IMG/VR virus record: IMGVR_UViG_2558860288_000010
Origin: a virus
Lineage: Duplodnaviria; Heunggongvirae; Uroviricota; Caudoviricetes
Length of the DNA stretch: 52,982 nucleotides
Strand: one strand, 5' to 3'
The number at the start of each line of letters is the position of its first letter. The first letter of the stretch is position 1. Below are positions 33,527-40,973 of the stretch, piece by piece. Under the pieces are notes generated by a model that was not told where the DNA came from, ran no database searches, and saw only the letters and a program-made list of their open reading frames with translations. A program made the position numbers and the translations under genes.

Positions 33527-34624
33527 ATGAAAAAATTAACAGTGGCAATTTCTGCTGTAGCTGCATCAGTACTGATGGCGATGTCTGCTCAGGCAGCTGA
33601 AATTTATAATAAAGACAGTAACAAGCTGGATCTGTACGGGAAAGTTAATGCCAAGCACTACTTTTCCTCTAACGATGCAGATGATGGTGATACTACTTAT
33701 GTTCGTCTGGGCTTCAAAGGCGAAACCCAAATCAACGATCAGCTGACTGGTTTCGGTCAGTGGGAATATGAATTCAAAGGCAACCGCGCTGAATCTCAAG
33801 GTTCCTCCAAAGACAAAACCCGTCTTGCATTTGCAGGCCTGAAATTCGGTGACTACGGCTCAATCGATTACGGCCGTAACTACGGTGTAGCATACGACAT
33901 CGGTGCGTGGACTGACGTTCTGCCAGAATTCGGTGGCGATACCTGGACCCAAACAGATGTGTTCATGACTGGTCGCACCACTGGTGTTGCAACCTATCGT
34001 AACAACGACTTCTTTGGTCTGGTTGATGGTCTGAACTTTGCTGCTCAGTACCAAGGCAAAAACGATCGTAGCGATTTCGATAACTACACCGAAGGTAACG
34101 GTGATGGCTTCGGTTTCTCTGCTACCTATGAATACGAAGGATTCGGTATCGGTGCAACTTATGCGAAATCTGATCGTACCGACACTCAAGTTAATGCAGG
34201 GAAAGTTCTTCCTGAAGTATTTGCTTCCGGTAAAAATGCAGAAGTTTGGGCCGCAGGTCTGAAATATGACGCTAACAACATTTACCTGGCCACTACCTAT
34301 TCTGAAACCCAGAATATGACTGTATTTGCTGATCACTTCGTTGCTAATAAAGCTCAAAACTTCGAAGCTGTTGCACAATATCAGTTCGATTTCGGTCTGC
34401 GTCCGTCCGTTGCTTACCTGCAATCTAAAGGTAAGGATCTTGGAGTATGGGGCGATCAGGACTTAGTCAAATATGTTGATGTAGGTGCAACCTATTACTT
34501 CAACAAAAATATGTCTACTTTCGTTGATTACAAAATCAACCTGCTTGACAAAAATGACTTCACTAAAGCACTCGGTGTAAGCACTGATGACATCGTTGCT
34601 GTAGGTCTGGTTTACCAGTTCTAA
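33527..34624 (+). CDS. nmpC: OmpC/OmpF-family outer-membrane porin (nmpC/ompD-like), intact
   Basis: 365 aa with signal peptide [23 protein letters not shown] and a porin C-terminus ending ...GLVYQF. Lies between Q and the holin, as nmpC does in DLP12. Confidence 0.85.
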
Positions 34625-36069: not shown

Positions 36070-36232
36070 GATTCCTCCTTGCTGCCAGTCGCAACCATTT
36101 TTTATCAACCAGGCTGGCGGTATATCCGAGCAGTGTTGGTATTTCGGATGGTTTTAGCTCAGGCTTACGCTTACGACGATTTGGTACTTTGTAGATGTGT
36201 CCGTTCATGACACGAATAAGCGGTGTAGCCAT
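36062..36232 (-). CDS. ninE: NinE (56 aa), not in the ORF track
   Basis: Hand translation gives [59 protein letters not shown] at 36232 overlaps the ybcN stop; the stop overlaps the ybcO start. Confidence 0.65.
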   Translation of the reverse strand: MATPLIRVMNGHIYKVPNRRKRKPELKPSEIPTLLGYTASLVDKKWLRLAARRNHG

Positions 36233-36687
36233 TACGCCTCCTGTTTGTCGCGGAGCTGCTGGAACTCGCAGCTCTGCGGAATAGTCAGGTGGCAGCCAAT
36301 ATTCATCGCCCAGGCTTCAACCTTACACAGGAAGATATACATCTCTCCGGTATCAAGATCGGAGGTATGGCGTAACGACTGGATAGTGGTGATCTCACCG
36401 GTTACGACATCAACCAGGTCTTTGGTTTCATAACCGAGATATGTGTGTTTGAGAGCATCTTTTACCCAAGCTGGAGTGGCGAACGTTTTACCCCTGCTGA
36501 TGAGGTATTCACTGATTTCGCTGTACCACATGTGGCTGAGTGCATTCTGGGAAAGACTGCGTTTCTCACGCCACGGTTTAAGCACCATGCGAAAGCATTT
36601 GCCTTCCTCCAGATAAGGCTGGATCTGCTGACCGATAGCAGTGAAGTTACCACGATGCAATTTGATGCCGTCTTGTGGGAGGTTCAC
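36232..36687 (-). CDS. ybcN: YbcN / NinB-family protein
   Basis: 151 aa with a REKRSLSQN motif, at the head of the nin gene block; GTG start. Confidence 0.6.
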
Positions 36688-36720
36688 GCTTCACCTCCGC
36701 AGAGGTCAAACGCTGGATGC

Positions 36721-36869
36721 AAAAAATCGCAGGTGCATCTCTGCATCTGTGAAGGGAGAAGAGAGTTTGGATTGTATGTGCGCATAAACGTCCCCGTTTA
36801 GCGCAGAAGTCACCGGAGTTGTTCAAGCTCCAATGGCATGATTATGGCTGGTTGATTATTGGAAATCAA
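36721..36869. repeat. 149-bp direct repeat, copy A (about 90% identical to 38664..38812)
   Basis: Base-by-base comparison of the two segments; contains hairpin-forming segments (gcgcataaacg / gtttagcgc). Confidence 0.85.
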
Positions 36870-36881
36870 ATGTGCTGAAAA

Positions 36882-37391
36882 TTAGTCTGCCAAGTCTTCC
36901 TCAGTCGCAACTGGGTAATTCCAAATATCAAAAAAAGCTATAGCCTCCTGCCATTTGCTCCATAAGTTATCAAGTACTTGTGTAGGTTCCGTACTTTTAA
37001 AAACAGAATCAGCCGCATCACCGTTATGAACTTCCTCGTACAGTTCCATTATTAGCAGATTAACAAAGTACTGTTTCAACATTAATGCCTGATTACCTTC
37101 TTTCTGCTGGCTATCCTGCTTGATGATCTCCATCGCCCGTACTAGGCACCTGATGATATCCGCTGCATCATTAACGCTCCATTCAGATCCGCGCTTATCT
37201 TTAGCTGATGAATTGGCTCTCTCAGCGCAAGCCTTTAAAGACTCATAAAGGTAAACTCTATTTTGTAGCTGCAGCGCTTTTTTTGACGTGTACCAACTTG
37301 CAAGCGCCGACCCCGCTGCGGCTAATGTGCCAAACGCAGAAATGCCTGCTGCTATTGCACTTAAGTCGGCACTGTCAAAGTTCCACATCAT
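36882..37391 (-). CDS. Hypothetical protein (169 aa) with an N-terminal hydrophobic segment
   Basis: ATG start; AIAAGISAFGTLAAAGSALASW looks like a signal or TM segment. Confidence 0.4.
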   Translation of the reverse strand: MMWNFDSADLSAIAAGISAFGTLAAAGSALASWYTSKKALQLQNRVYLYESLKACAERANSSAKDKRGSEWSVNDAADIIRCLVRAMEIIKQDSQQKEGNQALMLKQYFVNLLIMELYEEVHNGDAADSVFKSTEPTQVLDNLWSKWQEAIAFFDIWNYPVATEEDLAD

Positions 37392-37626
37392 CGTTACACC
37401 TTATATAAACACCCCTCAGTAATATCCAATAAGGTATGTGAACAATCAATATAATTTATATCCGTATCGGCACATAGCGATTTTAATGCTACTGATAATG
37501 GTATCTTTTAGATTATATCGTCCAGTTCCAGTACCCGTATTTTATGAAATGGACTCGCACATTACCAAAAAAAATGCCAGCACTTCCGTCATCGCAGAAT
37601 GCTGGCAGTATTTCTAACTAGTGACT

Positions 37627-38235
37627 TTATTGCAACAGATTCTGACGGAAATATGGTAACACACGACTCCACTTATCATCCTGCCACGGTTGGAATTTTA
37701 CATGCGCCGTTTCTCTGGCAAGGATTTCTCGCGCCCTGTTGAGTATCCGAGGATATTCTTGTTCGATTGAAGTGAATCTACCTGCTTCGCGATGCTCTGC
37801 GACCTGAAGAAGGGGCGTAACGTTCTGGCAGGCGGTTAACATCGTATCACTTGCTCGCCATAACCAGGCGAGTGTGCAAAGTTCGTTATCAGTGAATTGT
37901 TTTGTGATTGGGGATTGTTGAACTTCTCGATCGAGAATATCCAGAACCCAGCGGCGGAATTCTTTGGCCACAGGAGTACGAGCAAACATGGCGATCAAAT
38001 GGGCTCCGCGAAGGCTAAATACTCGAGACTCCTGCATTCCACGAGGGGTGGTCACTTTGACCACCCTTGTCATCATATCTGTGAATTCATCTGAGTGCCG
38101 AGAGTAAATGCGCTGAACTGCTTTATCGTCCGCATATTCCAGTGCTAAACCAACTTCAGTGGCAGTAAGCCAAATTCTGTTATTGTGGCAAATCGGGGTA
38201 AACGTCGTTTTGTGGAATGCTAATTGAGTAGTCAT
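37627..38235 (-). CDS. Phage antirepressor-like protein (putative)
   Basis: 202 aa; N-terminus resembles antirepressor/Bro-N-type proteins as recalled, and the gene sits directly downstream of the C4-like structured region (P1 c4-ant arrangement). Confidence 0.45.
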   Translation of the reverse strand: MTTQLAFHKTTFTPICHNNRIWLTATEVGLALEYADDKAVQRIYSRHSDEFTDMMTRVVKVTTPRGMQESRVFSLRGAHLIAMFARTPVAKEFRRWVLDILDREVQQSPITKQFTDNELCTLAWLWRASDTMLTACQNVTPLLQVAEHREAGRFTSIEQEYPRILNRAREILARETAHVKFQPWQDDKWSRVLPYFRQNLLQ

Positions 38236-38239
38236 AGTA

Positions 38240-38480
38240 TCACCTCATCAGGTTAACCATCACCACCAACGACGCCAATCGACTGGTGGTGAACTGTGTA
38301 AGGTTGGCGTAACCGGCTACTCAAACCCGGCGCTTCCGAAGAAGCCCTCACACAGCCCACCATAATTTGGGCATAGCCGTGCTTAGCGCACAAAAAAACC
38401 GCTTAACGCGGTATGCGTTGAGTAGTATCCCGGGACGCCAATCCCGTGTGCCGATTTTGCGGCAACGCACAGAATATAGC
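38240..38480 (-). ncRNA. Candidate C4/CI-type antisense RNA locus (prophage copy)
   Basis: Non-coding leader upstream of the antirepressor-like gene. Two hairpin-containing segments each carry acgccaat (38272..38279, 38435..38442), with a partly complementary ttggcgt segment between them (38304..38310), plus the shared 18-nt block at 38449..38466. Confidence 0.35.
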
Positions 38481-38663
38481 GCCGGATAAATCATGTCGTC
38501 AACCCCAGTAAATGGACACCATGATGATCACAGCCATAGCTGCTACAACAGTTACAACTACCTCAGGCCAAAACATAACGATTTCCATATCACCTTTAGC
38601 CGCCAGACGAATAGAGACTCCCAATTCTGGCTGTCGAAGTAAAACACCGAATGTAAAAAATCG

Positions 38664-38812
38664 TAGGTGCATTTCTGCATCTGTGAATGGAGATGAGAGT
38701 TTGGATTGTGTGTGCGCATAAACGTCCCCGTTTAGCGCAGAAGTCACCGGAGTTTTTTAGGCTCCGATGACATGATTATGGCGAGTTGATTATGATGAAT
38801 CAATAGGTTCTT
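38664..38812. repeat. 149-bp direct repeat, copy B
   Basis: About 90% identical to 36721..36869. Confidence 0.85.
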
Positions 38813-38895: not shown

Positions 38896-40017
38896 ATGAA
38901 ATATTTCTCAACTGGTTTTTATGTTTCAAACTCCACATCTCTAGCTGAGATCTTTAATGAATGTTTTTCTTGGGTAAACGACTCACCACATACAACTTTT
39001 ATTCCAGCACAATTAGTATGTGATTATAAAAGCGAGGAGTACTTCATAGAGTCTAAAAATGAAAGAATTGATATAATAACTTATAAAAACAAAGATACTA
39101 GTTTAGGCTGTTTTAGGTATTCGAAAATATCTGAGCCACACAAATGGGTAACAGATATTTCAATTAATAAAAATCTCAAAACTGATACCATGTGGATTCA
39201 GGTGGAATCTAGCGTTGTAAGCCAAGATGCAGCTTATCTAGCCCCGCAACCTAAGAAACCATTAGTTGTTATGAGATTGATTGATAAATTTTCTGGTGGT
39301 CTTGATGATATTTTCAAGGTGTCAGTCGAACCTCATTCCTTAGATGATACTGATGAACATTTAAATATAGCAGCTAAAGTTATAAATGGTGAAACTGACA
39401 ACAGACTACCAATAATATACGTTAGCTCCAAGTATTTTTTTAATGAACATGCTCACAATATCATCCCAGAACGCCTTGCAAGAAAGGTATGCGGATTAGC
39501 ACATGTATTAATTGAGCCTAGCAATAGACTATTTTCTATTAAGCTAAAAAATGAGACAAATGCTAAAAATGCCTATGCTGGTGCTGTTGGTATCTATTGG
39601 CCACGGGGTCAAAATATCAGTTTTTATCGCCGTGGTGAGAAAACCGCAAAAGAATTTGAAGATGAGTTATTTGATGATGTTGTAAGAGCTACGACTACAA
39701 TGGCTCCTGTCTCAGATAGTGGATGGAGTGAGATACAAACCAGAAAAACGAAAGACTCTATTAACTCACTCAAAGAAAGAGGAGAATACACACGCGAACT
39801 GATGGCGCTTTACGAAGCCGATAATGTTGCGAAAGATGACCAAATAGAAGATCTTAAGCATAAGATCTCCTCTTTAGAGCACAGAGTACGCACTCTTCAA
39901 TCACAAGCTTCAGCCCAAGGAAGCATTGTGCTTAATGCTGGTGAAGAGACTGATTTTTTTGATGGAGAAATCAAAAATATAATTATTGACGCACTAAAAA
40001 CTGCCATAAAAAAATAA
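38896..40017 (+). CDS. Hypothetical AT-rich 373-aa protein in reverse orientation to the surrounding early genes; possibly truncated
   Basis: ATG with AAGGAA RBS; C-terminal coiled-coil-like region. The stop follows a run of seven A's (40008..40014). Confidence 0.55.
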   Translation: MKYFSTGFYVSNSTSLAEIFNECFSWVNDSPHTTFIPAQLVCDYKSEEYFIESKNERIDIITYKNKDTSLGCFRYSKISEPHKWVTDISINKNLKTDTMWIQVESSVVSQDAAYLAPQPKKPLVVMRLIDKFSGGLDDIFKVSVEPHSLDDTDEHLNIAAKVINGETDNRLPIIYVSSKYFFNEHAHNIIPERLARKVCGLAHVLIEPSNRLFSIKLKNETNAKNAYAGAVGIYWPRGQNISFYRRGEKTAKEFEDELFDDVVRATTTMAPVSDSGWSEIQTRKTKDSINSLKERGEYTRELMALYEADNVAKDDQIEDLKHKISSLEHRVRTLQSQASAQGSIVLNAGEETDFFDGEIKNIIIDALKTAIKK

Positions 40018-40315
40018 AAATGAATTTGGTAGAAGCTACCATATCTTATCATCCCTAATTGCCAATAATGAATACAATAAAGAAACCGAGAGTCGCCGCC
40101 AATTACTTAAAAGGACTTTAACAGGTTACAGAAGCATGGATAGCGCAACACAAAGAAATTTAAAGGACTTAGGTTTCAGTGCGTCAAGCGATGGAAAACA
40201 CTGGAAGTTAACATATAATGAAGACCCTCGATATTCCTATATTTTACCTAAAACAGGAAGTGACCACAGAGGTTCTTTAAATGCTATCTCGGATATAGCA
40301 AACATTATTTTCTAA
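40016..40315 (+). pseudogene. Out-of-frame downstream continuation (about 100 codons) of the 373-aa gene
   Basis: Open frame from 40016 to the TAA at 40313..40315, with no ATG until 40135 and no RBS; a 1-nt change in the A7 run would fuse it to the upstream gene. Confidence 0.3.
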
Positions 40316-40685: not shown

Positions 40686-40973
40686 CTACTCTCTTCCATA
40701 TAAAGCCAACACCCGCTTCATCGCGGCACTTTGACGACACTCCTTAAAAATCAGATTCGTGCTCACCTTTCCTTCCCGTTCTTCTCTGGTAGCGAACCGG
40801 TAATACACCGTTCGCCAGACCTTACCATCAACGACCAGGATTCCTGACCGCGCCATTTTAGCCGCAGCCTGATTTATGCTGGTTACGGTTGCGCCTGTTA
40901 CCGCGGCAACGTCCTGCGCACAGAAGTTCTTATGAGTCCCCAGGTAATGAATAATTGCCTCTTTGCCCGTCAT
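40686..40973 (-). CDS. ren: Ren protein
   Basis: MTGKEAIIHYLGTHKNFCAQDVAAVTGATVTSINQAAAKMAR... is near-identical to lambda Ren as recalled. Confidence 0.85.
   Translation of the reverse strand: MTGKEAIIHYLGTHKNFCAQDVAAVTGATVTSINQAAAKMARSGILVVDGKVWRTVYYRFATREEREGKVSTNLIFKECRQSAAMKRVLALYGRE

Follow-up and report, generated by a model that had tools for sequence, protein, structure and literature searches.

The leader ahead of ninB in the lambdoid phage 82 is annotated (X92588) with a putative -35 and -10 element, an inverted repeat labelled 'possible regulator-binding site', a ribosome-binding site and orf33, a small gene that overlaps orf151 (ninB). In the DLP12 prophage of Escherichia coli K-12, the same 102-nt coding sequence (33 codons) precedes ybcN. 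We take this coding sequence to be ylcH; its RefSeq record says only 'hypothetical protein'. Phage lambda has the terminator tR2 in the corresponding place, between ren and ninB. Here we describe a stretch of DNA of 52,982 nt from a virus of the Caudoviricetes (IMG/VR record IMGVR_UViG_2558860288_000010; the whole stretch is hereafter called the window), in which two direct repeats flank a block of genes that includes an antirepressor. We consider it probable that both repeats are diverged copies of one regulatory cassette, which we name E and which heads the nin operon of lambdoid phages of the phage 82/DLP12/phi80 type. The repeat as such is ordinary lambdoid phage mosaicism. What is new is E as a conserved structured leader; annotation has so far presented it solely as a hypothetical gene of 33 aa.

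The phage 82 orf33 leader and the K-12 DLP12 open reading frame (ORF) before ybcN are the same element as E. Copy A of the window is 91% identical to the X92588 leader over about 230 nt and copy B is 90% identical (BLAST). The phage 82 and K-12 records describe a hypothetical small gene and putative signals, but not the three-helix RNA, the terminator-like hairpin, the spread through Enterobacteriaceae or the duplication around cargo that are described below. Lambda tR2 occupies the same position as the third hairpin of E and likewise consists of a stem-loop followed by a U tract. However, the two share no sequence similarity, and the lambda region, at 73 bp, has a plain GC-rich hairpin and lacks the promoter-like site, the additional hairpins and the small upstream ORF (uORF) of E.

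The direct repeat reported in the first-pass annotation was recovered both by a repeat search and by BLAST, with revised limits. The repeat search gave 168 nt at 87% identity, with copy A at 36702-36869 and copy B at 38636-38803 (both on the minus strand, as are all features below unless stated otherwise) and a spacing of 1934 nt; BLAST aligned 158 nt at 88.6% (E = 5e-55). An identical run of roughly 42 nt is common to the two copies. The interval first given for copy A (36721-36869) lies inside the true copy, whereas that for copy B (38664-38812) is shifted by +9 nt; aligning these two intervals leaves 9-nt overhangs at both ends, and the homology extends 19 nt beyond the first limits at the low-coordinate end. 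The 1766 bp of intervening DNA (36870-38635) hold the C4-like leader, the antirepressor gene and the 169-aa ORF that had been assigned to the block (Rfam, Pfam), and additionally a 29-aa hydrophobic ORF.

Read along the minus strand, the gene order is O, P, ren (40686-40973), opposite-strand cargo, copy B, a 53-codon ORF, a 29-codon ORF, an isrK/C4-type leader, the antirepressor gene, the 169-aa ORF, copy A, ninB/ybcN, the other nin genes and Q. Contrary to the initial description, the block does not lie directly between ren and the nin genes, because 1.9 kb of opposite-strand cargo (38896-40315) separates ren from copy B. Copy B is located upstream of the antirepressor block. Copy A is directly upstream of ninB/ybcN (36232-36687), the first nin gene, whose translation is predicted to be coupled to that of the uORF in copy A.

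The conservation of E has a sharp edge. In an alignment of 102 unique copies, information content is at most 0.4 bits upstream and then rises to 2.0 bits exactly from the TTGAT of a -35-like hexamer. A promoter-like hexamer pair is found in 98 of these copies, mostly as TTGATT and CATAAT, with a 17-nt spacer in 90. Consensus scanning placed the corresponding sites of the window (TTGATT-17-CATAAT) at 36841-36869 in copy A and 38775-38803 in copy B; the single E of the empty-site genomes discussed below has the same promoter region as copy B. In 69 copies, an inverted repeat, TTGAT-N8-ATCAA, overlaps the -35 hexamer and the spacer (36852-36869 and 38786-38803 in the window), and some other copies have a different palindrome in its place (ATCATTTTTCAAAAGTGAT). 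The palindrome suggests a DNA-binding regulator, as a candidate only. FNR was considered for this role. Half-sites of the FNR consensus are spaced by N4. The half-sites TTGAT and ATCAA equal those of FNR, but the spacing here is N8, which is wrong for FNR.

Of 5426 complete E. coli genomes, 2886 carry E; the median is one place per genome, and E occupies 3444 places in all. It has further been found in phages and genomes of Klebsiella, Enterobacter, Citrobacter, Leclercia, Lelliottia, Trabulsiella, Scandinavium, Huaxiibacter and Pseudescherichia. The usual 3' neighbour is a ybcN-type or lambda-type ninB; in single cases it is Q or another gene. Pattern matches beyond the Enterobacteriaceae were not confirmed by a covariance model, with the exception of two short contigs that gave full-score matches, one labelled Kocuria sabuli (L143, a 1.1-kb scaffold) and one labelled as an Oxalobacter metagenome-assembled genome (L173, a 3.2-kb contig). 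These two labels likely reflect contamination or misbinning. Neither copy has a match in Rfam release 15 at E <= 1 in a 10-kb scan, and copy A alone at E <= 10 gave only chance-level matches of at most 17 bits. We found no description of E in the literature, where ylcH as a whole word appeared in a single expression-table mention, and no match to E in a paper on Hfq-bound prophage small RNAs (sRNAs) of enterohaemorrhagic E. coli (EHEC) and its two supplements.

The evidence that E acts as a folded RNA comes from covariation. A covariance model (R1), built from nine same-length copies of E including both from the window, finds exactly two matches in the window, 36716-36840 (copy A, 155.4 bits) and 38650-38774 (copy B, 150.6 bits), scores that are partly by construction because both copies are in the model; R1 has no match on lambda. 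Three hairpins were recovered in single-sequence folds (z-scores -3.4, -4.4 and -2.8), and the values of -3.4 and -4.4, together with the covarying pairs, uphold the early observation that each copy contains hairpin-forming segments. Pairs were counted in a model-based alignment of 72 distinct sequences; a plain MAFFT alignment of 35 diverse copies, in which hairpins 1 and 2 fell out of register between sequence versions, was not used for this purpose. Standard pairs occupy 96.4% of cells, against 82.5% in shuffles. Of 28 pairs, 21 have changed on both sides; shuffled alignments give 10.2 such pairs, and displacing the partners by 1-3 columns leaves 4-7. U-G pairs are frequent on the nin-sense strand (at one position, 30 of 70), and since the opposite strand would have C-A mismatches there, the folded molecule is the sense RNA.

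Hairpin 1 of copy A (CAUUGGAG, loop CUUGAACAA, CUCCGGUG; 36810-36836) has double compensatory changes in eight of nine pairs. It corresponds to the 'possible regulator-binding site' of X92588 and to IR4 of phi80, and its 9-nt loop, CCUGAACAA, is conserved across phages of different types. A reading of hairpin 1 as a nut-site boxB was rejected, as the 53-kb window contains no other hairpin with its loop motif. Hairpin 2 (GCGCUAAACG-GGGA-CGUUUAUGCGC; 36780-36804 in copy A) has double changes in eight of ten pairs. Its loop is GGGA or GGGGA, with a GGGGA resembling a Shine-Dalgarno (SD) sequence, its 3' arm contains the start codon of the uORF, and compensatory sequence versions of it are seen. 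About 28 unpaired nucleotides separate it from hairpin 3.

Hairpin 3 consists of UCACAGAUGCA, a GARA loop and UGCACCUGCGA, followed by a U tract. In copy A (UCACAGAUGCA-GAGA-UGCACCUGCGA plus U6; 36721-36752) it was identified by a terminator scan as a terminator-like structure inside the uORF, and the K-12 allele is AAUUCUUUG. In both window copies, the stem of hairpin 3 spans 11 positions, two of them conserved A-C mismatches, and is capped by a GNRA loop and followed by U6. Klebsiella phages lend this stem independent support through three double compensatory pairs, with CACAGAUGCA-GAAA-UGCACCUGCG replaced by CACCGAUGGC-GAAA-GCCACCGGCG. Beside these three compensated pairs, the GAAA loop and both A-C mismatches are unchanged in the Klebsiella phages (36727-36752 and homologues). 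The conserved mismatches suggest tuned stability or a recognition feature.

The uORF of copy A has 33 codons (36684-36785) and corresponds to phage 82 orf33; its TGA overlaps the GTG start of ninB (GTGA). Among 105 unique copies of E, 96 encode a uORF of 31-33 codons whose final TGA shares bases with the start codon of the following long ORF (GTGA or ATGA). The start codon is AUG, or GUG in one sequence version. The frame is kept over at least five N-terminal and at least three C-terminal sequence classes that differ by 3-nt indels, and no copy is out of frame with the conserved core. The peptide, by comparison, appears unconstrained: no codon position is favoured among the variant sites (16/15/17 and 11/12/12), the share of synonymous changes is barely above random (0.35 vs 0.25, and 0.31 vs 0.22), and the hairpin 3 compensation in Klebsiella phages alters the peptide from SQMQKCTCDFL to SPMAKATGDFL. 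This is the signature of a leader ORF, for which translation and coupling would matter and the product would not. In attenuators of the pyrBI type, a ribosome translating the leader close behind RNA polymerase prevents formation of the terminator hairpin. E is similar in that a short uORF, with its frame kept and its peptide unconstrained, runs through a terminator-like hairpin. It differs in that no regulatory codons, pause signals or covarying antiterminator were identified in E, and in that its uORF would also be coupled to the next gene by the stop/start overlap.

Copy B retains the promoter-like site, all three hairpins and U6. The loop of its hairpin 1 (38744-38770; loop 38752-38760) reads CCUAAAAAA in place of the consensus CCUGAACAA, which is retained by another locus (L120) and by the empty-site genomes despite an identical promoter and hairpin arm. 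Hairpin 2 (38714-38738; R1 match and fold) contains the AUG of orf53 at 38719, and hairpin 3 plus U6 (38655-38686) has one broken stem pair, with CCUACG for CCUGCG. The uORF of copy B, orf53 (38558-38719), follows orf33 for its first ~24 codons and then continues, with no downstream start to which it is coupled. Hairpin 3 has a different single change in each of three copy-B lineages (CCUACG, AUACACC and GAUGUAG). The A-type hairpin 3 core, by contrast, is kept in seven E. coli loci and in named phages that were fetched without reference to hairpin 3, with one exception, a stem-strengthening C-to-U change in PhiR5_1. Relaxed constraint on hairpin 3 could explain the copy-B changes, as could selection for a weaker terminator before the antirepressor unit.

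The first-pass annotation had proposed that the block entered, or could be lost, by recombination through the repeats, and had set single-copy empty sites as the check. At least 80% of the 2.3-kb two-copy block is covered in 112 of the 5426 E. coli genomes, and the copy-B-linked segment is found in 299. Eight two-copy loci, including the window, share the same order: copy B, the 29-aa segment, isrK/C4, antirepressor, variable cargo, copy A and ninB. We used a synthetic deletion product of 868 nt (upstream cargo flank, one E and ninB) as the query for empty sites, and obtained a single-piece full-length match in 21 genomes at 95-97.6% identity. These genomes carry the same cargo gene, one E and ybcN. 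The single-copy layout, with E directly before ybcN, is also that of K-12 DLP12, of phage 82 and of the majority of the 2886 E-positive E. coli genomes. A single copy is thus the norm, rather than two copies around unrelated cargo with no single-copy sites.

The closest empty site, that of TUM9868, has a hybrid E. Over the 5' part (flank, promoter spacer, hairpin 1 arm and ACACAC) its sequence is that of copy B; beginning with CTCTTC it is that of copy A, down to the rare GAGA loop, which places the crossover within AATCCAAACTCTC. This hybrid is the outcome expected from one crossover between the repeats. The TUM9868 cargo protein (472 aa) is 100% identical to that of the window over 372 aa, which makes the two prophages close relatives distinguished by the antirepressor block. 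Two further empty-site genomes have the same 5' part, a different version of hairpin 2 and an A-type 3' part, and mosaic copies of E were found in EFF60 and S1-INA. The hairpin 1, hairpin 2 and 3' blocks of E occur in all combinations, and the four-gamete test fails on both sides of hairpin 2; recombination inside E is therefore common. Phage Rad52-like recombinases recombine sequences diverged by 12% with only about a 100-fold penalty (PMC3945230). Together, the genome comparisons indicate that the antirepressor block is an insertion/deletion polymorphism with recombination inside E, and the empty sites and the hybrid E of TUM9868 support entry or loss through the repeats. The alternative offered at the outset, a promoter/terminator unit reused in front of two transcription units, appears to be right as well and is compatible with recombination, given that neither copy has lost its promoter-like site, its hairpins or its U tract.

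Cargo between two E copies was found independently in an IMG/VR contig (L101, 6847-11919). There the cargo is a bacteriocin cassette, which encodes a protein with a tail-fibre-like domain, a protein that combines pyocin_S and cytotoxic domains, and an immunity protein of the cloacin type. A ninB remnant comes after the first E, the second E lies directly before Q, and a LexA-box-like sequence, CTGTATAAATACACAG, is located upstream of the bacteriocin cassette. Two other candidates, ST131 and JNEC-KY180, with E seemingly around an alpha/beta-hydrolase or a BstA gene, were rejected because direct BLAST found one E in each.

The arrangement in the window resembles morons, which Juhala and colleagues reportedly described in lambdoid phages in 2000, and the module junctions known as the 'boundary sequences' of modular theory. 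The antirepressor block lies between genes that are adjacent in relatives (21 genomes without the block and 112 with it), and its junctions are short, conserved stretches of diverged homology, of a kind that recombines efficiently in phage crosses. The block's own signals are at the level of consensus matches (promoter-like sites at 38775-38803 and 38473-38502, and a hairpin plus U8 at 37567-37609). In contrast to morons, the junction here is a structured regulatory cassette that is duplicated on both sides of the cargo.

We hypothesize that E would start a transcript at its own sigma-70-type promoter, and that hairpin 3 would stop part of both the incoming and this new transcription, leaving a short RNA of about 110 nt. 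Ribosomes on the uORF would melt hairpin 3 and permit read-through and coupled translation of ninB. E could then function as a translation-sensitive attenuator and an insulator. In the window, the 29-aa ORF and the antirepressor block would form a unit headed by copy B, and the nin genes a unit headed by copy A. A segment consisting of copy B, the 29-aa ORF, the isrK/C4 leader, the antirepressor and orf169 would have been joined to copy A and ninB by homologous recombination within E, and the same homology would permit precise loss of the block. Taken further, E could be a widespread cis-regulatory RNA of enterobacterial lambdoid phages, with a promoter regulated through the TTGAT-N8-ATCAA palindrome, a structured leader and a uORF-dependent attenuator, that gates the entire nin-Q arm of prophages and insulates cargo, and whose product might also act as an sRNA; we put this fuller version forward tentatively, as plausible but somewhat short of probable.

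E could instead be mainly a gene for a trans-acting sRNA of ~105-115 nt, so that the window would have two paralogous sRNA genes and the uORF would be secondary. This explanation overlaps with the cis-regulatory one, and we regard it as rather unlikely. The promoter, three hairpins and U tract correspond to the layout of an sRNA gene (two stem-loops, an unpaired C/A/U-rich seed and a U-tailed terminator hairpin), covariation is found on the sense strand, and the peptide is unconstrained. The isrK RNA of Gifsy-1, which is said to be both an sRNA and an mRNA leader, can be counted as a precedent. The one hint from expression data, for this explanation and for the cis-regulatory one, comes from K-12 transcriptomics, where ylcH RNA but not ybcN is listed, with a 2.03-fold rise in microaerobic growth (PMC8910356). 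An sRNA alone, however, would not need the frame and the stop/start overlap seen in 96 of the 105 unique copies. The presumed seed, the unpaired linker, is the least conserved part of E, and the U tract is often interrupted; the absence of an Rfam family and of a match in the EHEC paper also count against an sRNA. Reading E as merely a conserved recombination linker between phage modules, with no regulatory role, would accommodate the free reassortment of its blocks and the two independent E-bracketed cargoes (window and L101). We find this very improbable, since neutral sequence would show neither compensatory changes in three helices nor a kept frame with stop/start overlap, nor a conservation edge at the -35 hexamer.

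Other explanations concern the origin of the repeats. The leader of ninB could have been duplicated in place, in tandem fashion (by slippage or unequal exchange), and later split by the antirepressor block, with copy B as a decaying remnant. The two changes in the hairpin 1 loop of copy B, its broken hairpin 3 pair and its uncoupled uORF would fit such decay. Yet the copies differ by 12-13% when flanking DNA is 98-100% identical between strains, copy-B-type 3' ends (tail plus 29-aa ORF) form their own lineage across phages that differ in copy A and in the upstream cargo, and the single E of empty sites has the same 5' part as copy B. These points argue for exchange between E alleles that had already diverged, and in-place duplication can be given little credence. 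The data also point towards copies A and B of one genome falling into separate groups. Least credible of all is that the block is a mobile element or island and the repeats its target-site duplication or attL/attR. Direct repeats around a block that is present or absent between genomes are what such an element would leave, but the block has no integrase or transposase (gene list, Pfam) and no terminal inverted repeats at its ends. Moreover, 168 nt at 87% identity is unlike a target duplication, and the same cassette occurs once in thousands of genomes.

Several points weigh against the preferred explanation, namely an attenuating leader cassette that also serves as the site of recombination. 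The E promoter, termination at hairpin 3, translation of the uORF and the short RNA are all predictions from sequence. Hairpin 2, which holds the start codon, should inhibit initiation of the uORF. Many homologues have an interrupted U tract behind hairpin 3 (GATTTTCTG, GATATTTTG and AATTCTTTG), so termination there may be weak or not the point. An antiterminator, formed by pairing of GAUGCAGAAA with the U tract, is possible in E. coli copies but has no compensatory support in Klebsiella phages; as this alternative pairing does not covary, we did not retain a classical terminator/antiterminator switch. Most homologues were fetched by a pattern inside hairpin 3, which makes invariance there partly a matter of construction, and the alignment fitted to the covariance model leans towards structure and contains three spurious low-score rows. 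With respect to recombination, the hairpin 1 loop of TUM9868 is the consensus one, whereas that of copy B in the window carries two additional changes, so TUM9868 does not derive by direct deletion from this exact sequence. The data may fit either gain of the block in the window or its loss at the empty sites. Finally, in two loci (L115 and L050), isrK/C4/ant directly follows ren without copy B, and only copy A is present, which means that duplication of E is not required for the antirepressor module.

Within the block, the 29-aa hydrophobic ORF (MEIVMFWPEVVVTVVAAMAVIIMVSIYWG; 38499-38588) has an SD sequence, AGGTGA, and matches phrog_4612 (E = 1.7e-16). It is linked to copy B in all eight two-copy loci. 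A 77%-identical variant still encodes a hydrophobic product, while in another locus a stop codon breaks the frame. Possibly, it encodes a small membrane protein or toxin. Next to it is an immunity-I-like leader (38282-38502), which comprises an isrK/c4-a1b1 target region and a C4 antisense RNA (Rfam C4 74.8, isrK 58.7 and c4-a1b1 39.6 bits) and has a promoter-like sequence, TTGACG-18-TATATT, at 38473-38502 (consensus scan). The antirepressor-like gene (37627-38235) encodes 202 aa with Bro-N and P22_AR_C domains (Pfam). This arrangement, C4 and isrK matches above Rfam gathering scores followed by an antirepressor, resembles immunity I of P1/P7 (c4-icd-ant) and isrK-orf45-anrP of Gifsy-1. We know of no counterpart of E in either of these systems. 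A strong hairpin plus U8 (ACUGCCAGCA...UGCUGGCA UUUUUUUU; 37567-37609) is found right after the antirepressor gene and accounts for a below-threshold Rfam match to mir-725 (23.1 bits; gathering score 76).

The slot between the antirepressor gene and copy A is variable. Here it is occupied by the 169-aa ORF (36882-37391; phrog_1779, PHROGs E = 1e-102), and elsewhere by a HEPN-domain pair or a BstA-domain gene (L128, 5460-6256; L129, 4510-5439). The ren-ninB interval has at least two variable cargo slots with defence-type content, including PD-lambda-1 in PhiR26_1. The opposite-strand cargo of the window (38896-40315, plus strand) encodes a protein of 373 aa that resembles HEC-07, a candidate defence protein (PADLOC HEC-07, E = 5e-10), and a 59-aa ORF (40136-40315). 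Judged against the 472-aa TUM9868 protein, the HEC-07-like gene looks frameshifted or truncated, and the 59-aa 'HicA-like' ORF may be its displaced C-terminal part. Downstream of Q and also on the opposite strand, as in DLP12-type prophages, is a gene for an OmpC/NmpC-type porin of 365 aa (33527-34624, plus strand); related loci are annotated as ompC or porin.

The antirepressor block is thus recently exchanged cargo, bordered by two alleles of E, and it would be precisely losable. It provides a sequence-level example of a lambdoid cargo swap at a short functional element between ren and ninB, in a slot that gathers defence-type genes (PD-lambda-1, HEC-07-like, HEPN and BstA) in relatives. The K-12 'gene' that we take to be ylcH has the look of a leader ORF, part of an RNA with three covarying hairpins that is listed in no RNA database. 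Given its location at the tR2 position, E probably influences the transcription that reaches the recombination genes and Q in many prophages.

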